From Eledone cirrhosa (lineage: Eukaryota), in NCBI GenBank assembly GCA_964016885.1, contig OZ024741.1, positions 109,802,001 through 109,866,000 on the forward strand: DNA of 64,000 bases, given 5' to 3'. Position numbers and translations under genes: made by a program. How positions within the stretch are numbered: the stretch's first letter is position 1; the number at the start of each line of letters is the position of its first letter. Of this stretch, positions 3,682-50,828 are shown piece after piece. A model generated the notes under the pieces. That model did not search any database. It saw only the letters and a program-made list of their open reading frames with translations, and was not told the origin of the DNA.

Positions 3682-3718
<37 letters not shown>

Positions 3719-3727
3719 AAGTTTGTC

Positions 3728-3793
3728 CTCATCAGTGACCATCCAACCGTCGTAGGCATTTCGTCGCATTAAAGGCCATATACCTCAGGTTGG
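3728..3793 (-). ncRNA. Candidate non-circularly permuted HHR
   Basis: CCAACC-TGA-GGTAT-A-TGGCC-tttaatgcgac-GAA-ATGCC-tacGAc-GGTTGG-at-GGTCA-CTGATGA-G. Confidence 0.7.
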
Positions 3794-4349
3794 TGCGAGC
3801 AACGGCTAAAATAAAGTCGGTGGGACACGTAAATAAAGGGGACGCTAGGGTAAACAAACAAAATGGTTTAAGCAGCAGAAAGTGGTGAAGAAGGAAACAA
3901 GTCCCAGATTTCTATGAATATAAATTCGGTGGAATCGTGAACGAGAGAATAAAGACCATCAAACCTGGTTGAAATGTGAGCAAGGAAAGAATTTCGCACA
4001 GGTCTAATGGGAGGAAGAAGGGGTCTGGTCTGCGAATTCGGTAAACATAAGTTCTGTGAAGTCGCAGACGAGAGAGAGAGAGAAAAAAATTCATACCGGC
4101 TTGGCCAAGTGCCCGCGAGAAAAGGATTACGGACAGGTCAAACGGGAAGAAATGGGAGGAGGAGAGGTAGTGACAGAGAGTGAGTGAGTGAAAGGTGAGG
4201 AAGAGGCTAACAGAGAGAGAGACTGCTAGAAAGGGTAGAGACACAAAGAACGAAACAGACTGGTGGCAGCGGAGGAAAAAATATATGTGTAAATATGATA
4301 ATAATGGAGCTGCGGCGCTGCAAATGGGTTACATATGAAAAAGTTTGTC

Positions 4350-4415
4350 CTCATCAGCGGCCATCCAACCGTCGTAGGCATTTCGTCGCATTAAAGGCCA
4401 TATACCTCAGGTTGG
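4350..4415 (-). ncRNA. Candidate non-circularly permuted HHR
   Basis: As 3728-3793; stem I TGGCC/GGCCG. Confidence 0.7.
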
Positions 4416-4933
4416 TGCGAGCAACGGCTAAAAAAAAGTCGGTGGGGCACGTAAATAAAGGGGACGCTAGGGTAAACAAACAAAATGGTTTAAGCAGCAG
4501 AAAGTGATGAAGAAGGAAACAAGTCCCAGATTTCTATGAATATAAATTCGGTGGAATCGTGAACGAGAGAATAAAGACCATCAAACCTGGTTGAAATGTG
4601 AGCAAGGAAGGAATTTCGCACAGGTCTAACGGGAGGAAGAAGGGGTCTGGTCTGCGAATTCGGTAAACATAAGTTCTGTGAAGTCGCAGACGAGCAGACC
4701 AGACCCCTTCTTCCTCCCGTTAGACCTGTGCGAAATTCCTTCCTTGCTCACATTTCAACCATGTTTGATGGTCTTTATTCTCTCGTTCACGATTCCACCG
4801 AATTTATATTCATAGAAATCCGGGACTTGTTTCCTTTTTCATCACTTTCTGCTGCTTAAACCATTTTGTTTGTTTACCCTAGCGTCCCCTTTATTTACGT
4901 GTCCCACCGACTTTTTTTTAGCCGTTGCTCGCA

Positions 4934-4999
4934 CCAACCTGAGGTATATGGCCTTTAATGCGACGAAATGCCTACGACGGTTGGATGGCCACTGATGAG
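4934..4999 (+). ncRNA. Candidate non-circularly permuted HHR, predicted cleavage after 4948 (AUA)
   Basis: Stem III 4943-47/4968-72, stem I 4949-53/4987-91, GAA 4965-67, CTGATGA 4992-98, outer helix 4934-39/4979-84. Confidence 0.75.
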
Positions 5000-5124
5000 G
5001 CAAACTTTTTCATATGTAACCCATTTGCAGCGCCGCAGCTCCATTATTATCATATTTACATATATATATACATATATATATATACCAATATAAATATATA
5101 TTTGCATACATATATGTGTGTGTT

Positions 5125-7287: not shown

Positions 7288-7714
7288 AATCTGAGCTTTT
7301 CGATATTAATAATAACATTCGATTCGTTTGCAATTATGCAAACCAGCTTCATTTTTAAAGACATGTCAGTAGAATGAACCCTTCATTCTTGCTCTTGTGT
7401 TGGCATGTAAACAGAGCTGTAGGCACTAATGTTTCTGGGTATCATCCTTCATCAGTACAGCTCACTCTTCACCTGCCAACTGTCAGAGCTAGTGAAAATA
7501 TATGCTATTTTCTAAAATATACAGTGACTGATCGGCCAGTGCGCTGTACTGATGAAGGGTGATACCCAGAAACATTAGTGCCTAGAGTTCTGTTTACATG
7601 CCAACACAAGAGCAAGAATGAAATGTTCATTCTACTGACATGGCTTTAAAAATGAGGCTAGTTTGTATAATTGCGAACGAATCGAATGTTATTAATATTC
7701 GAAAAACTCAGATT
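7288..7714. mobile_element. Fold-back with an HHR-like motif in each arm (7414-7463 minus, 7543-7588 plus)
   Basis: ~175-bp inverted arms; GAGCTGTA-CTGATGA-AGGrTGATACCCA-GAAA-CATTAGTG-CC-TACAGCTC; C instead of U at 16.1. Confidence 0.7.
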
Positions 7715-19990: not shown

Positions 19991-22223
19991 GAAGAATCGT
20001 CAACATATATCAGCTTCTACCATTCTTACACGATCGAAATGTTGCCTCTATGCCTTATTTTATAAATAATTTCATGAGAGTTATTCTGATAAACTTCCCC
20101 TTTTGTTATCTGTTCTTCACGAGTTTAAACAAAGCACCAGATTGGCGGCTAGTTTTCATCTATTTACTGTAATTTCTTAAATGTAACTGCAAATTCTATT
20201 CTGATATATTCTTCTCTCATATATCTTACCTATGGATTTCTCTTCCAGCTGCTTGCTTTTCTTAACAATACAATTTTTTAAAATTCAAAGGAACATCAAT
20301 CGTCATCTCTTCTTGAATTATATTCTCTCTGCTTTGTCCTTTTCCCTTTTCAGTAACCCCTTGCATATTAGTGGCTTTGTTGCCTTGTTTGGAGTAAACA
20401 AATTTTTTAAAAACCCACACACACTCACACACAATGTACGCTGTACATCACAATGGGAGAACAGATGTAAATATTTCGGCTGGCGGGATATCGCCTCATA
20501 TTTTGGATGTCCGTACGCTCGTCAATTTATGAAATATGGTGGAGAAGACAAGACGAATATTGTGGCTCTAAAATTATTTAAAACAAAAATGCCTGAAACA
20601 CGTAAAGACATTCTCTTATGTTTTTATTTGTCCAGTTACAGTAACACAAAGTGTATTTACACTTCAAACTGTTAAAAACAAAGCTCATAATTTAAAAGCT
20701 ATTCATATATGAACATTAAATCTAAACTATAATAAAGGAAGGTCTGCGAGACTGCGTACGGTTTATTTTTTTTATCCCGTTAGTAAAATAAGTTGGATTA
20801 CTTTGAATAAATAATGAATGAATATTACATAATTTATATACTAAATTTCGTAAACAAAAATAATTTCGTAAAAATAAATAATTTAAAATTGACTTCTTTT
20901 CAAAGTTGTACTTCCGGTATATCGTTGCCACCACCACCACCACTTCAACTACCATATTTAAAAAGAGAGAGTGTGTGATGTCAACACTTCCGGTGGCGAT
21001 CACTTAAATAAACATACTAATTTTCTGTCACTAATTTTCTCCTAATGCAGTTTATATATAATATCGTCTTTTTTAATGTATCATGGATTACGTTACTGAT
21101 TACATAAGGCAGTGTAACAACGTCTTCGTTCAATTTCTGTTTATATTGTGAATTACGATTTTATTTGATGTATCATATCTACATGTATATATACTTGCGT
21201 ATAATATCAATATACACACTACACATGCTAGCAGAAAACCACCCGAAGGGTAGTTTTTCTGTTAGTTTATATTAAGTCTTCTAATACACTATGTGATATG
21301 AAAGACTTTAATTCTTTAATTAATTACGTTGCTAAGCGAATGCACGTCATGCAACTTAGAACGTCTATATCAGTTATGTACTGCATCATACATAACATAA
21401 ATAACGACTATGATAAGTTTCTTCTCTAGGTCGAATCATAGAGCTAGTTGTCTTCCGATGAAAGGATAGAAAGTCGGAAATTTGTTAAGGAATATCGTGT
21501 GTTATATTTTGAATGTGTGTATAGAGAGCATAACAGAAAAGGTATTTGTACCTCAGTATGTTCATGTGTACGATCGAAACACAAGATAGTCCCTTGTCAT
21601 CATTCGACCGCCGGCAGTCCTAGTGGTTTCAGTATTTAAGATTGATATCAGTAGCTCCAGTGCACATGGAAATGGAAAAAAGATAAGTATTGACGTACAT
21701 GTACGTCAATACTCATCTTTTTCCATTTCTTAGTGGGCTCTAAACCCCACTGTTAGGCTAACATTTCTTCAGTCAAAAAATACGGTGAAAGCTTCTATTT
21801 TTAATTTCAAACTCGCACGCTGTTTCAAAAACATGCTTACTTGTCATATATAAAAAGAGAGGCGTGGGGGGAGTAAGGATGGAAGCAAACGGAAGTATAT
21901 TTAAATCTTTTTTCTTCTTTAATCCGACAAAGTTATTATTGAAAAAAGGAGAAAAATATTTTTTTAAAAGGGGGTTTTATAAAATATATAAAAGATATTA
22001 CCGGTTTCGGTGTCATTCATCTTATCTAATATTAAAAGTTAAGAATTAAAAATTAAAAATTAAGAGTTGAAGGTCTGTTCATATGATGTATGCACACGAA
22101 AATTCATTGCATCGATAGGTTTTGCATAGAATTTTCCTGTGTATGAATATATATATATATACCATTTGCTTTCCTTCCCTCCTTCTTCCGTTTTCCCAAT
22201 AACTTACTCAGTTATTGAACGCC

Positions 22224-22290
22224 CTGGGCGGTAGATATCTTGTCTTTAAAGCGTAGAAATATCCGAGACCCCCAGTAGACAACTTATGAG
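22224..22290 (+). ncRNA. Permuted-HHR motif with mutated core (CTTATGA)
   Basis: GATAT-C-TTGTCT-ttaaagcgta-GAA-ATATC-cgaGAc-CCCCAG-t-AGACAA. Confidence 0.6.
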
Positions 22291-23407: not shown

Positions 23408-23731
23408 ACATGGCGTGCTGCGTGGTTGCAAATGGGTTACGACCAGGTCGAATGGTCTTTATTCTCTCTCGTCTACGATTTCACAGAACTTATGTTCATC
23501 GATTTCAGGGAGTTGACTCCTTTTTCCTCACTTTTCGTTGCATTACCATCTTTGATTGTTTACTGTCTCGCTCGTTCCCCCTATTTACGTGTCCCAACGA
23601 CTTTCTTTAGCCGTTGCTCGCACCAACCGGAGCTATATGGTCTTTAAAGCGATGAAATACCAATGAAGGTTGGAAGATCACTGATGAAGGACTAAATTTA
23701 TTCATATGTAACCCATTTGTAACCACGCAGC

Positions 23732-30790: not shown

Positions 30791-31493
30791 TATAAGGAAC
30801 AAGGAGCTGTGTGGTTACTTGAAAAAGTGTATTTAGAAATGAAAGGAAAGCACAAACAAGGGACAGATCTTCTCGTCAGTTGTCTGCTGGGGGTCTCGGA
30901 CATTTCAACGCATTAAAGATAATATGTCTATCCCCAGAGAAAAAAGGCGCTGAAAACATACTGATAGGAGGGGGGCACAAGGAGCAGCACATGTATGTAA
31001 GTAACCGAGAGAGAGAGTGAGGGAGAGAGATAGAGAGATAGAGAGAGAGATAAGTCAAACCGGCGGCTGGACATAAGTCCGCGGCGTTATTGACAGCAAG
31101 ATATGGAGAGCGAAGAAAAACAAGTCTAACCTCGGCGGGAGTAGACAAAGAGAGGTAGAGACGAGAAGAAACGGAAGTAGTAAAGGAGCAGCGAGAAAGA
31201 GAGTATAAGTGAGTGGGAGAAGGAGAGAGAGCGAGAGAGGGGGAGCGAAAGGGAAAGAAAGAAAGGGAGAGGGAGGAAGGAAAAGAGTTAATAATAACAA
31301 GGGAGATGGAGAAAAAGAACAGGTCACAGCAAAAGATTAATACAAATTTATAAGGAACAAGGGGCTGTGTGGTTACTTGACACTGTATTTAGAAATAAAA
31401 GGAAAGCACAAACAAGGGACAGGTCCCCTCTTCAGTTGTCTACTGGGGGTCTCGGACACTTCAACGCATTAAAGACAATATGTCTATCCCCAG
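30791..31493 (-). mobile_element. 556-bp-unit element with permuted-HHR motifs at 30872-30937 and 31428-31493
   Basis: ~145-bp direct repeats; CTGGGG-ata-GACAT-A-TTrTCT-ttaatgcgtt-GAA-rTGTC-cgaGAc-CCCCAG-y-AGACAA-CTGAmGA. Confidence 0.8.
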
Positions 31494-31561
31494 TGCATCA
31501 ATAACTTTTGTAAGTTATTGGGGAAAGAAAAAAGGAGAGAGAAAATAAATTAAACAGAAGG

Positions 31562-41447: not shown

Positions 41448-42130
41448 TTAATTGTAAGTTGTGATGTTGCTGTTCCACTCATATTTTCTATTTAATTTTG
41501 GTTGTAATTCTTTTATGTGTATTGCCTCTGTGATTTGTCTAAACATTGCGTCTTTTCTGTGTGTAGATTCTATTTTTATTTCTATGTTCTCTAATTTACC
41601 CTTATGTTCTATTTTAGCATGTTGGTAGAGTACAGATGATTCTTTACTATCTTGAAGGTCTCGCCAGTGTTCATTTATCCGTTCCCCTACACTACGAGCT
41701 GTCTCACCTATGTACACTATATTTTTGTCTCTACATTGTCCTTCAGTACATCTTATGCTATACACTACATTTCTAGTTTTACAGTTAATATGGGGGCTTA
41801 TTTTACAGGTTATACATTTCTATACAGGGGGGTCTTTGAAAGGGGTATGTCTTGCTAATAAGTCTTTTTACGGAGGTACCTGGTCTTTCTGCTATCTTAA
41901 TATTGAGTTTATGTTTATCTAAGGCCCTTCTAAATTTGTAAGCTAATTCACCTCTAGGGGTTGTATCGATGAACATTACACTCTGGTATTTATTGCTATC
42001 ATACCATGAGTTTATTCTATTAGCCTTGTTCCTAGTTCTTTCTATTCTATTCCAAAATTTGCTCCTATACAAAGGGCAGGTCCCATTTGTGTCATTATTT
42101 ACCATTTTTTCCCCATTTGGTTCTGGCTCC
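41448..42130 (-). pseudogene. PLE linker + Cys4 finger + GIY-YIG endonuclease, one frameshift near 41820
   Basis: PLYR..W..SVMFIDTTPRGEL..PPC / KCITC..NCKTRNVVYSIRC..YIGETARSVGERINEH..EAIHI..LN. Confidence 0.9.
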
Positions 42131-42789
42131 TCTATACACTCTGATTTTATCTCTCTGATTGTAACCAGAGAACTGCATACGGTGGATGAAGTGTTGTATG
42201 TGTCTCTCTAGTTCTTCGGGGTTGCACATGCGGGACACGTTTCTCATCACCCGTACCAAATCCGCAATCAGTATGTTGATTTTGGTATGGTCCGAAACAG
42301 CTGAGTTTCGGTGGATCAGATGTTTGGAAGTTATGGGTTTGGCATAATGGGAATGGAGGATTTGTTATTACCCACTCTACTACCCAAAGTATTGAGTACT
42401 TTGGTGCGTTATGGTCCACCTGGTTCCTTACCACATTTCCTTCGTTATATATATATTTAAAAATAGAATCTACACATAGAAAAGACGCAATGTTTAGACA
42501 AATTACAGAGGCAATAAACATAAAAGAATTACAACCAAAATTAAATAGAAAATATGAGTGGAACAGCAACATCACAACTTACAATTAAGGACAAAATGAA
42601 AACACACACGCACATAGAACAAACAACCAACCTGTAACATGTAAATAAACAAATAAATAAACGAATATAAACACACACAGACACCCGGATGTGGCGCATG
42701 CGCAGACTGAGCACACAACACACACACAGAAACAAAATGGCGTAGGACAGAAGAAAGGAGAGGCACAAAAACAAAGAAAAGTATCCCCA

Positions 42790-45325: not shown

Positions 45326-45501
45326 TAACGCGAAGAAATACCTATGATTCCTAGCAGACAACTGACGATGGATATTACCCTCTTTCGCCCATAACTTTTA
45401 TTTTCATTATACTTAATTGCAACCACACAGCTCACCATTTTATTCATATAAGTTTCCTTGTTCCCTGTGACCCGTCTCTTTTCTCTCCCCTTGTTGCTAT
45501 C

Positions 45502-45533
<32 letters not shown>

Positions 45534-46008
45534 CTTCTCCCTCTTACTTTCGCTCACTCCCTCTGCTAGTCACCTTCTCTCGGCTAGCGTGCCACTATAA
45601 CTATCTCTTTCTCGCTTCCTCTTACTTTCACTCACTCCCTCTCTGCTAGTCACCCTCTCTCCGCTAGCTCACTTCCTCCCTCGTCCGCCACTGTAAGCAG
45701 TCTCTTCTCTCGCTCACACGGCTACAGTGAAGACGTGTCTTTTTTCTCTCGTAAAACTCGCCAGAACTTATGTTCGAAATGAGTTGTTGACTTGCTATTT
45801 TTCCTCTCTTAACGTTGCTTCACACTTCGTGTCTGTTTATATTTTTTTCTCTCTCTTCCCCCCTTTTTTTATCCCAATAAGTTATTTTAGTTATTGTTTG
45901 TCCTAGGCTGAGGTATCTTGTCTCTAACGCGAAGAAATACCTATGATTCCTAGCAGACAACTGGCGATGGATATTACCCTCTTTCGCCCGTAACGTTTAT
46001 TTTCATTA
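45326..46008 (+). mobile_element. 599-bp-unit permuted-HHR element (partial motif 45326-45369, full motif 45903-45968)
   Basis: CTAGGc-TGA-GGTAT-C-TTGTCT-ctaacgcgaa-GAA-ATACC-tatGAtt-CCTAG-c-AGACAA-CTGrCGA-T. Confidence 0.8.
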
Positions 46009-46071: not shown

Positions 46072-46077
<6 letters not shown>

Positions 46078-49000
46078 ATAAATGCTCTGAAATAGCGATA
46101 TATATGTGAATATAGACATAGAATATTCGAAAATATTCTGTATGTTTATAATAAACATTTTGAAGACCTAATCGCTATAGAATAGAATACGTCACGTATT
46201 ACAATTAGATTCTCGATAAAAGCAAGGGAAGTAATCTACGCGTTTCATTCTTGTTAGAAATCTTCAGGACTACATATCCAGTGCTTTTATCGAGAATGAC
46301 ACAGCTAGAGACTTATAGAATACTTAGCTGTGTACAGGAACTGGTTTGAAAGAGCGGTTGCCGGTCCGGCAGAAATTAGAAATTGGAATAAATGCTCTGA
46401 AATAGCGATATATATGTGAATATAGACATAGAATATTCGAAAATATTCTGTATGTTTATAATAAACATTTTGAAGACCTAATCGCTATAGAATAGAATAC
46501 GTCACGTATTACAATTAGATTCTCGATAAAAGCAAGGGAAGTAATCTACGCGTTTCATTCTTGTTAGAAATCTTCAGGACTACATATCCAGTGCTTTTAT
46601 CGAGAATGACACAGCTAGAGACTTATAGAATACTTAGCTGTGTACAGGAACTGGTTTGAAAGAGCGGTTGCCGGTCCGGCAGAAATTAGAAATTGGAATA
46701 AATGCTCTGAAATAGCGATATATATGTGAATATAGACATAGAATATTCGAAAATATTCTGTATGTTTATAATAAACATTTTGAAGACCTAATCGCTATAG
46801 AATAGAATACGTCACGTATTACAATTAGATTCTCGATAAAAGCAAGGGAAGTAATCTACGCGTTTCATTCTTGTTAGAAATCTTCAGGACTACATATCCA
46901 GTGCTTTTATCGAGAATGACACAGCTAGAGACTTATAGAATACTTAGCTGTGTACAGGAACTGGTTTGAAAGAGCGGTTGCCGGTCCGGCAGAAATTAGA
47001 AATTGGAATAAATGCTCTGAAATAGCGATTAGGTCTTCAAAATGTTTATTATAAACATACAGAATATTTTCGAATATTCTATGTCTATATTCACATATAT
47101 ATCGCTATTTCAGAGCATTTATTCCAATTTCTAATTTCTGCCGGACCGGCAACCGCTCTTTCAAACCAGTTCCTGTACACAGCTAAGTATTCTATAAGTC
47201 TCTAGCTGTGTCATTCTCGATAAAAGCACTGGATATGTAGTCCTGAAGATTTCTAACAAGAATGAAACGCGTAGATTACTTCCCTTGCTTTTATCGAGAA
47301 TCTAATTGTAATACGTGACGTATTCTATTCTATAGCGATTAGGTCTTCAAAATGTTTATTATAAACATACAGAATATTTTCGAATATTCTATGTCTATAT
47401 TCACATATATATCGCTATTTCAGAGCATTTATTCCAATTTCTAATTTCTGCCGGACCGGCAACCGCTCTTTCAAACCAGTTCCTGTACACAGCTAAGTAT
47501 TCTATAAGTCTCTAGCTGTGTCATTCTCGATAAAAGCACTGGATATGTAGTCCTGAAGATTTCTAACAAGAATGAAACGCGTAGATTACTTCCCTTGCTT
47601 TTATCGAGAATCTAATTGTAATACGTGACGTATTCTATTCTATAGCGATTAGGTCTTCAAAATGTTTATTATAAACATACAGAATATTTTCGAATATTCT
47701 ATGTCTATATTCACATATATATCGCTATTTCAGAGCATTTATTCCAATTTCTAATTTCTGCCGGACCGGCAACCGCTCTTTCAAACCAGTTCCTGTACAC
47801 AGCTAAGTATTCTATAAGTCTCTAGCTGTGTCATTCTCGATAAAAGCACTGGATATGTAGTCCTGAAGATTTCTAACAAGAATGAAACGCGTAGATTACT
47901 TCCCTTGCTTTTATCGAGAATCTAATTGTAATACGTGACGTATTCTATTCTATAGCGATTAGGTCTTCAAAATGTTTATTATAAACATACAGAATATTTT
48001 CGAATATTCTATGTCTATATTCACATATATATCGCTATTTCAGAGCATTTATTCCAATTTCTAATTTCTGCCGGACCGGCAACCGCTCTTTCAAACCAGT
48101 TCCTGTACACAGCTAAGTATTCTATAAGTCTCTAGCTGTGTCATTCTCGATAAAAGCACTGGATATGTAGTCCTGAAGATTTCTAACAAGAATGAAACGC
48201 GTAGATTACTTCCCTTGCTTTTATCGAGAATCTAATTGTAATACGTGACGTATTCTATTCTATAGCGATTAGGTCTTCAAAATGTTTATTATAAACATAC
48301 AGAATATTTTCGAATATTCTATGTCTATATTCACATATATATCGCTATTTCAGAGCATTTATTCCAATTTCTAATTTCTGCCGGACCGGCAACCGCTCTT
48401 TCAAACCAGTTCCTGTACACAGCTAAGTATTCTATAAGTCTCTAGCTGTGTCATTCTCGATAAAAGCACTGGATATGTAGTCCTGAAGATTTCTAACAAG
48501 AATGAAACGCGTAGATTACTTCCCTTGCTTTTATCGAGAATCTAATTGTAATACGTGACGTATTCTATTCTATAGCGATTAGGTCTTCAAAATGTTTATT
48601 ATAAACATACAGAATATTTTCGAATATTCTATGTCTATATTCACATATATATCGCTATTTCAGAGCATTTATTCCAATTTCTAATTTCTGCCGGACCGGC
48701 AACCGCTCTTTCAAACCAGTTCCTGTACACAGCTAAGTATTCTATAAGTCTCTAGCTGTGTCATTCTCGATAAAAGCACTGGATATGTAGTCCTGAAGAT
48801 TTCTAACAAGAATGAAACGCGTAGATTACTTCCCTTGCTTTTATCGAGAATCTAATTGTAATACGTGACGTATTCTATTCTATAGCGATTAGGTCTTCAA
48901 AATGTTTATTATAAACATACAGAATATTTTCGAATATTCTATGTCTATATACACATATATATCGCTATTTCAGAGCATTTATTCCAATTTCTAATTTCTG

Positions 49001-49259
49001 CCGGACCGGCAACCGCTCTTTCAAACCAGTTCCTGTACACAGCTAAGTATTCTATAAGTCTCTAGCTGTGTCATTCTCGATAAAAGCACTGGATATGTAG
49101 TCCTGAAGATTTCTAACAAGAATGAAACGCGTAGATTACTTCCCTTGCTTTTATCGAGAATCTAATTGTAATACGTGACGTATTCTATTCTATAGCGATT
49201 AGGTCTTCAAAATGTTTATTATAAACATACAGAATATTTTCGAATATTCTATGTCTATA

Positions 49260-49263
<4 letters not shown>
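46072..49263. repeat. 310-bp retrozyme-like array: ~3.1 units minus then ~7.2 units plus, one HHR per unit
   Basis: Period 310 (46072, 46382, 46692, 47002); HHRs minus at 46231, 46541, 46851; plus at 47237 + 310n (n=0-6). Confidence 0.95.
47237..47279 (+). ncRNA. Minimal type I HHR with palindromic stem III; predicted cleavage after 47273 (GUA)
   Basis: GTAGTC-CTGAAGA-tTTCT.AGAAt-GAAA-CGCG-TA-GATTAC; distal 15-bp helix 47214-28/47286-300. Confidence 0.9.
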
Positions 49264-49302
<39 letters not shown>

Positions 49303-49574: not shown

Positions 49575-50173
49575 AACATGAGAAGAAAGAAGAATACTGC
49601 GTGGTTGCACATGGGTTACATATGACAAAATTAGTCCTTCGTCAGTGATTTGCCGACCATCATTGATATTTCATCGCATTAAAAATCATATACCTCAGGT
49701 TGGTGCTAGCAATAACTAAAAAAAGCTATTGGGACCAGTAAATCGCGTAAAGCGAGGGGGACAAGTAAACAACATAGAAGGATAAAAGCAAACCAAAGAT
49801 AGGAAAATAAACAAGCAACATGGTTATCTGGTCAGCATAAACTGGGTGGATTTCATGAACGATCAAGATACAGACCGTCCGACGTGAGTGAGATGTGAGC
49901 AAGAAGAGACCCCACTACTAGCCAAACGGGAGGAAGTGAGAAGGGGAGACACAGAGAGTGAGTGAGTGGAAGTGCGAGGAAGAGGTCAGTCGAGAGAAAG
50001 TGTAACTGACAGAGGGGGCGAAAGAAGGTGAGAGCAACAGAGAGAACGGGGAAGCAGTAAGAGAGAAACAGACAAACGCAGCCGAGGTAAATATATATAA
50101 AAAACATGAGAAGAAAGAAGAATACTGCGTGGTTGCACATGGGTTACATATGATAAAATTAGTCCTTCGTCAG
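49573..50173 (-). mobile_element. 528-bp-unit permuted-HHR element; intact motif 49638-49703
   Basis: CCAACC-TGA-GGTAT-A-TGATTT-ttaatgcgat-GAA-ATATC-aatGAt-GGTCGG-c-AAATCA-CTGACGA-A; direct repeat 49573/50101. Confidence 0.8.
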
Positions 50174-50202: not shown

Positions 50203-50828
50203 ATTAGAAATGTAAGCTATCGCCGTATTTTCACTAAAGAAATTAAAGAAATTATTTAGCCTGATAGTGGGGTTAAGAACCCTCGGAGAAATGGAAAAAA
50301 ATGAGTATTGACGTTCATGGGAATCGAACACACATCTGAGGTTATACAGACCACTGTGCTACCATTACACCAACACATCACCCGTCTTCTTCCATTCAAA
50401 TTAGAAGTTATAATCTTAGCAAGTGTAATGTCAAGTAAGAATATTTTCGAAACAGCGAACGAGTTTGAAATTAGAAATATAAGCTATCGCCGTATTTTCA
50501 CTAAAGAAATTAAAGAAATTATTTAGCCTGATAGTACACTTGCTATTTAGCCTGATAGTACATTTGACATTATACTTGCTAAGATTATAGCTTCTAATTT
50601 GAATGGAAGAAGACGGGTGAAGTGTTGGTATAATGGTAGCACAGTGGTCTGGATAACCGCAAATGTGGGTTCGACTCACATGTACGCCAATACTCATCTT
50701 TTTCCATTTCTCCGAGGGTTCTTAACCCCACTATCAGGCTAAATCATTTCTTTAATTTCTTTAGTGAAAATACAGTGATAGCTTATATTTCTAATTTCAA
50801 ACTCGCTCGCTGTTTCGAAAATATTCTT
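50203..50828. mobile_element. 267-bp unit, tandem then inverted, with an internal tRNA-like module; relative at ~21670-21835
   Basis: Period 50203/50470; TGGTATAATGGTAGC..GGTTCGACTC..TTTTT at ~50622-50703. Confidence 0.75.

Follow-up and report, generated by a model that had tools for sequence, protein, structure and literature searches.

A predicted four-strand hammerhead ribozyme with a split stem II on Naiad-type Penelope-like retroelements and short units of an animal genome

A Permuted Hammerhead Core at 4934

The window, i.e., the whole 64,000-nt stretch of Eledone cirrhosa DNA analysed here, contains a repeated motif, represented by the copy at 4934(+), which raises the question whether a hammerhead ribozyme can be assembled from strands in an unusual order, how these strands are connected and which genetic element carries them. 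Read from its sequence, the motif is a hammerhead core with all core bases, non-circularly permuted and pseudoknotted, in the block order S-G-C: the cleavage site is followed by GAAA and this by CUGANGA. The classical types I, II and III are not matched, as the order S-G-C stands in place of the circular C-G-S and the helices cross. The ten copies listed in the original prediction were all found at their places and on their strands.

In the 4934 copy, with all parts on the plus strand, the stem II 5' strand TCGCA (4929..4933) lies apart from CUGANGA and pairs with the linker at 4959-4963. It is followed by CCAACC (4934..4939), the 5' strand of an outer helix which bridges stems I and II and has its partner GGTTGG at 4979-4984. 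Block S (4943..4953) comprises the stem III 5' strand, U16.1 (4947), H17 (A4948) and a stem I strand, and block G (4954..4972) the linker, the stem II 3' strand, position 11.1 (C4964), the GAA core (4965-4967; GAA-A at 4965-4968), A15.1 and the stem III 3' strand. The last segment (4979..4999) holds the 3' strands of the outer helix and of stem I, the CUGAUGA core (4992-4998) and the next base. Stem III is formed by GGTAT (4943-4947) and ATGCC (4968-4972), stem I by TGGCC (4949-4953) and GGCCA (4987-4991). By analogy, the cut is predicted 3' of A4948, the position that had been proposed at the outset. The nested minimum-energy fold of this copy differs from the presumed active fold; the program used does not model pseudoknots. 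A hairpin located directly 5' of the ribozyme (4905..4927, +) has arms that co-vary between families, and its pattern gave 7,811 genome matches with a control of 0. Published Octopus Naiads, inspected by eye, show a similar hairpin ahead of the motif.

Stems I and II are in helical contact through the outer helix. A short linker between these stems had been expected to replace the usual loop contact; a role of this linker in bringing the stems together has already been proposed (Eckert et al., 2023, PMC10085705).

Genome-Wide Count and Covariation

The pattern linker-GAAA-CUGANGA had 16,993 exact matches in the genome (8,559 + 8,434) and its reversed control had none, while a variant pattern added 354 matches with a control of one. 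Together with the core order and the crossing helices, these counts bear out the claim of a non-circularly permuted, pseudoknotted hammerhead in animal repeats. For the covariation analysis an alignment (A1) was established from 114 distinct instances; 18 truncated or rearranged ones were removed and near-identical ones merged, which left 65 full-length rows. The rows are mutually related (effective number ~20) and were selected by the core pattern, so that invariance of the core within A1 is circular.

A model with five helices paired 84.3% of the cells in A1, compared with 35-43% for slid partners, and 304 two-sided changes were counted vs. 124 in shuffles. Compensatory change occurred at 20 of the 25 proposed pairs. 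Two-sided change affected all seven pairs of stem I and five of the six pairs each of stem III and the outer helix, the latter being paired in 90.7%; the covariation originally described for stems I and III was thus confirmed. U16.1 was present in 59 of 65 rows and H17 was not G in 64 of 65, neither being part of the search pattern. Position 17, said before to be always A or C, proved more variable (A 39, C 16, U 9, G 1). The spacing of the motif is constant within A1 (83-86 nt). RNAalifold, run unaided, recovered the outer helix as the sole helix because the program cannot draw pseudoknots.

Among 30 copies retrieved by the flanking upstream hairpin alone, 24 had an intact core, five carried a single core change and one stopped at the predicted cut; the core positions of these 30 copies were not clearly better preserved than their flanks. 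On the evidence of controls with reversed patterns, antisense strands, shuffles and slid partners, a chance origin of the motif was rejected. So was a canonical fold spanning tandem copies, whose strands would sit more than 1 kb from each other while the motif keeps a fixed local spacing.

A Probable Separate 5' Strand in Stem II

According to the aligned sequences, stem II is a helix of 5-6 bp whose 5' strand is separate and derives from upstream of the cleavage site, so that the backbone would be interrupted between A9 and G10.1. The register of linker 4959-4963 with 4929-4933 gave at least four of five pairs in 56 of 65 rows, compared with 0-35 rows for the other seven registers. The description of stem II as a single pair therefore has to be revised. 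Column pair 15-51 of this helix occurs in A1 as UA (33), GC (13) and AU (7); in this genome the stem II signal comes mostly from one swapping pair and ranks low in APC-corrected mutual information (248-1,265 of 3,182). A contiguous stem II after CUGANGA is absent, as 10.3-11.3 is paired in two of 65 rows. The pair 10.1-11.1, if formed with the base after CUGANGA, is present in 42 of 65 rows, and its rank in corrected mutual information, 1,967 of 3,182, does not sustain the covariation claimed for it. This A9/G10.1 break is a connectivity outside the published six-permutation model and appears to be new.

The dominant families here could instead be ordinary type SGC ribozymes with a stem II of one base pair, the upstream pairing being accessory or vestigial. 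Such ribozymes would explain the pair G4999-C4964 of the 4934 copy as well as the partners of base 11.1: of the 65 rows, 23 have it paired solely with the base that follows A9 and nine solely with the 5' strand (both 19, neither 14). They would leave unexplained the in-register pairing of linker and 5' strand in those 56 rows, with its three-way compensatory change, and the Naiad motifs introduced below, in which the base after A9 is able to pair with C11.1 in only one of 13 and unable in 12. We regard this alternative as unlikely and retain the split stem II.

With a split stem II, the dominant families here would have lost the G10.1-C11.1 pair of the 5' strand; the base after A9 possibly takes over its role, and these families may therefore be slower than the Naiad form. 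Hammerheads use the A9 phosphate and N7 of G10.1 for their metal site. Opening the backbone after A9 would leave both groups in place, in keeping with the invariant G of the 5' strand. In Penelope hammerheads, stem II is reported to carry an unpaired base at its 5' end (Cervera and de la Peña, PMC4209133), and rows of the published SGC alignment also show it (PMC10085705); this unpaired base is the opened position.

Copies in the Window and Their Host Insertions

The window consists of AT-rich animal DNA from an assembly of 3.0 Gb. Self-BLAST delimited a host insertion at 3708..5067, in which a ~620-bp non-coding unit lies in partial tandem within (TA)n. It carries minus-strand ribozymes at 4350-4420 and 3728-3798 (period 622) and an inverted, 5'-truncated unit at 4694-5067(+) with the 4934 copy. 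Two copies belong to other families: 22219..22290(+) has a changed G5 (CUUAUGA) and 23618..23688(+) an intact core with one stem III mismatch. The former had been called decayed, with a G/A mismatch at 10.1-11.1; this G/A is a family trait and not decay. A minus-strand tandem pair contributes a copy with decayed stem II strand in the downstream unit (30872..30942) and one with G at 15.1 in the upstream unit (31428..31498). Further copies are a 5'-truncated one without block S (45326..45369, +), one with changed A6 (CUGGCGA; 45898..45968, +) and one with intact core (49638..49708, -), upstream of which a partial unit starts at CUGACGA (near 50173).

Thirty close relatives either end ~75 nt past the ribozyme in (TA)n or continue into the next unit; they show variable 5' truncation and frequent inverted partners and have no ORF of their own. 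Many short units in the genome are 97-99% alike. Partial tandem pseudo-LTRs, an inverted 5' copy, 5' truncation, a fixed 3' end and a microsatellite target are features of Penelope-like elements, and the layout of the window units is that of a Penelope-like element in non-autonomous form. Non-LTR retrozymes are not matched, since the tandem units hold the permuted form and not a type I hammerhead. The window copies are non-coding Penelope-like units of ~620 bp, inserted in (TA)n and probably derived from Naiads.

Canonical hammerheads occur in the same window. At 46072-49272, 310-bp units are arrayed in tandem and include an inverted block; each unit carries a canonical minimal type I hammerhead with palindromic stem III, and the array reads as an ordinary retrozyme-like Penelope derivative. 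More canonical minimal type I hammerheads were found, mostly by eye, in inverted Penelope-like ends at 7455(-), 7549(+), 33339(-), 36169(-), 36347(+), 41243(-), 42794(+), 52086(+) and 54041(-). Both hammerhead wirings thus coexist in one window. A broken fragment from the 3' end of a canonical Penelope-like ORF, with a C-terminal GIY-YIG-like motif, lies inside an inverted repeat at 41448-42207(-). Another inverted repeat (50203-50828) contains tRNA-like genes for Tyr (50308-50380, -) and Ser (50618-50690, +), has a relative at 21697-21847 and may be a tRNA-bearing Penelope-type repeat.

Permuted Hammerheads Behind Naiad ORFs

Naiads target (TA)n and are said to lack canonical hammerheads; 18 Naiad families were flagged 'HHR_core' or 'HHR_half_core', with no structure proposed in the published description (Craig et al., 2021, PMC8557442). 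Starting from a relic in the genome, Naiad proteins led to 147 related metagenome loci, 80 of which were fetched. Matches extended up to the ORF end in 59 metagenome loci, and 47 of these had at least 230 nt beyond the ORF. A scanner open to all six block orders matched 15 of the 47 Naiad 3' regions, all in S-G-C order with split stem II, and gave 0 matches on the antisense strands and on five shuffles of the same regions. The 13 distinct motifs (e.g., L269:4290-4370) have a 5' strand forming five perfect Watson-Crick pairs, for which the background frequency is 0.3-3% per position scanned. G10.1-C11.1 is present in all 13 and pair types swap at 10.2-10.5; a 3' partner for stem II was found in none of the 13. 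In five of them, as in the window copy, 36 nt separate the stem II 5' strand from GAAA.

Motif carriers with a long enough ORF have an N-terminal GIY-YIG motif before RT (P0001, P0004 order included). The features of the Naiad clade (N-terminal GIY-YIG, CxC, DKA and RT in one element) are found in the metagenome carriers, while the window units are without ORF. The carriers are placed in three parts of the RT tree, one of them together with the Naiad relic of this genome (L072). No scanner match was obtained for 32 of the 47 Naiad 3' regions, although one of these, L334, does carry the motif, its stem I being weak. Within one large Naiad subclade no permuted hammerhead was seen in the 3' regions retrieved (L265, L266, L268, L274, L279, L282, L283, L286, L291, L297, L300, L318, L323, L324, L331, L343, L344). 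The Naiad ORFs of L269, L270, L272, L273 and L275 comprise 950-1,300 aa and extend ~350 aa beyond the end of the aligned query; in L275 this extension includes a GIY-YIG-like motif, and a second nuclease domain at the C terminus is possible for these five.

In 33 of the 54 published Naiad consensus sequences the last 300-600 nt were inspected by eye, and SGC or CSG hammerheads were recognised in 14 of these 33 ends. Eight show the split SGC architecture of the window (Obim, Ovul, Amil, 3_Chem, 2_Movir, Plae, Esco with an imperfect stem II and Bfor with a 2-bp stem I) and six, from nematode and spider, type CSG (three Nbra, Hpol, Hcon, Smim). At the 3' end of Naiad_Lpol, stems I and III follow the S-G-C order, and a long structured stretch is inserted between stem I and GAAA (by eye); this is possibly a further variant. 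The published bivalve ends CGi and Mmer show other GC-rich, conserved-looking structures, which could be a different self-cleaving RNA.

In this genome, five copies carry a linker like that of the published Octopus Naiad, and no ORF was found upstream of these five loci. Four Naiad-directed searches, two of which scored 150 of 4,569 and 150 of 3,602 candidates, gave only broken Naiad ORFs, in agreement with a remark of Craig et al. on cephalopods (PMC8557442), and no motif joined to a Naiad ORF was found among the candidates scored. The relic-like motifs seen by eye ~400 nt behind the Naiad remnants L072, L109 and L120 escaped an nhmmer search, and no match was obtained in the 80 Naiad contigs with a profile built from the copies of the genome. 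The tie between genome and Naiads is therefore one of architecture and not of primary sequence. On the basis of this architecture, the 36-nt spacing, the upstream hairpin and the five copies with the Octopus linker, descent of the genome's units from Naiads is very probable. A search for Naiad relatives among viral contigs gave none. The intact ORFs found in the genome are those of Penelope-like elements with C-terminal endonuclease, which have no SGC motif at their ends and are candidates for the present source of the enzyme mobilising the short units. L135-L141 form a young Penelope-like family with intact ORFs of 580-950 aa and no recognisable hammerhead just behind the ORF.

Proposed Mechanism and Alternatives

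It is likely that the motif is a hammerhead ribozyme of Naiad-type Penelope-like retroelements, present here on short non-autonomous derivatives, with a four-strand split fold and predicted cleavage. The RNA would fold as an ordinary three-helix hammerhead core with an additional helix bridging stems I and II, its four strands being ordered as stem II 5' strand plus bridge, S, G and C. The split form may be regarded as a new opening, between A9 and G10.1, of the ring published for SGC and CSG; at this place Penelope hammerheads are known to tolerate a bulged base. Following established hammerhead chemistry, cleavage should be Mg2+-dependent and proceed 3' of H17 (4948) by attack of the 2'-OH; monomer cleavage is expected because stem III has 4-5 bp, with no dimer required. 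Cleavage in each pseudo-LTR could trim read-through or tandem transcripts to unit-length templates, which would serve target-primed reverse transcription into (TA)n. The ~620-bp units would derive from Naiad 3' ends and now be copied in trans.

Copies starting at or up to 4 nt upstream of the predicted cut number 180, compared with 74 for the upstream control and 503 for the downstream control, the latter covering more families; both junction peaks are explained by TA microhomology with the (TA)n target. Anecdotally, the single cases L209 and L236 end or start exactly at the predicted cut site. Contigs from two of four sequencing runs were examined and contain the repeat, which speaks for its presence alone.

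A real fold whose active species is a strand-swapped tandem dimer, or depends on protein as in minimal Penelope hammerheads, appears somewhat less likely than even the one-pair stem II. Copies are frequently in tandem, for minimal Penelope hammerheads cleavage is weak and confined to multimers (PMC4209133), and four mutually crossing helices may thread with difficulty; yet stem III is a full helix of 4-5 bp that has no palindromic loop, the spacing in A1 is constant, and published SGC RNAs of similar topology cleave during transcription (PMC10085705). We consider it very unlikely that a catalytically dead, hammerhead-derived structure has been retained as a recognition or priming signal for reverse transcriptase. 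In favour of such a signal, many families miss G10.1-C11.1, the cut site does not stand out in the junction counts and the flanking hairpin is retained too; against it, divergent Naiads from several RT subclades preserve the complete core together with the UH rule and A15.1-U16.1.

Beyond this genome, we think it reasonably probable that non-circularly permuted hammerheads have their natural genomic home in the Naiads of different animal phyla, which would use at least two wirings, type CSG and a hitherto undescribed, self-cleaving four-strand form opened at A9/G10.1.

Implications

The supposed lack of canonical hammerheads in Naiads has been taken in print as an argument that hammerheads are perhaps no more than parasites of Penelope-like elements. 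Naiad-borne hammerheads would fill this gap concerning the spread of Naiads without canonical hammerheads. If the proposal is true, the view of hammerhead-free Naiads is overturned and a connectivity is added beyond the six-permutation model; it would also suggest that Penelope-like elements generally require a 3' self-cleaving RNA. Non-circular permutations, formerly known from unassigned metatranscriptome contigs, are now placed in animal chromosomes, with ~17,000 copies in a single genome. As one ring opened at different places, CSG and the split form would be natural intermediates for the rewiring of ribozymes in tandem repeats, and the split model predicts a hammerhead in which A9 and G10.1 are not covalently linked. 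Hammerhead and retrozyme censuses using type I-III descriptors have missed the permuted class.

Comparison with Known Systems

Standard models miss the permuted form, as had been foreseen: no hammerhead family was among the best 150 of 290 Rfam matches in the window, those listed being microsatellite noise and a tRNA, and the 20 Naiad loci searched gave no Rfam match. In the literature outside subscription journals we found no report placing SGC or CSG in animals or Naiads, and the motif form is absent from the consulted passages of bioRxiv 10.64898/2026.07.22.740005 (retrozymes, type I descriptors only), PMC13725137 and PMC10162972.

Canonical Penelope-like elements and non-LTR retrozymes carry minimal type I hammerheads (PMC4209133; bioRxiv 10.64898/2026.07.22.740005), which differ from the motif by their circular type I order, a tiny palindromic stem III and dimer dependence (PMC4209133). 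These hammerheads were found with type I descriptors, to which the permuted form is invisible. Naiads (PMC8557442) share partial tandems, inverted 5' copies and (TA)n targets with the window units but carry an ORF, which the latter lack.

Eckert et al. (2023, PMC10085705) defined six block orders, of which SGC and CSG cleave in vitro; their model assumes that CUGANGA is contiguous with stem II, and in their searches, which included RefSeq, neither type was found in genomes of known organisms. The topology of the motif had thus been reported before, as suspected originally. Type SGC (HRIMA-1 and a variant) and the motif share the S-G-C order, all core bases, a short linker of ~3 nt between stems I and II and a fourth helix bridging these stems. 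In published SGC, stem II and the bridging strand lie 3' of CUGANGA, directly joined to it in an unbroken block C, whereas the strand is at the 5' end in the window motif; published SGC comes from metatranscriptomes, while the window motif is chromosomal with thousands of copies. Type CSG has the same strand ring, of which the window form is a circular permutation. It is known from two metagenome sequences, for which the published account names no host, and unlike in the motif its stem II is contiguous with CUGANGA.

The original prediction sought novelty in the architecture and in an animal retroelement host. Both stand, although the host had been left unnamed, and it is in this host, Naiad-type Penelope-like elements, that most of the novelty lies. 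Hammerhead chemistry and the SGC block order were already known; the strand connectivity and the widespread animal host are apparently new.
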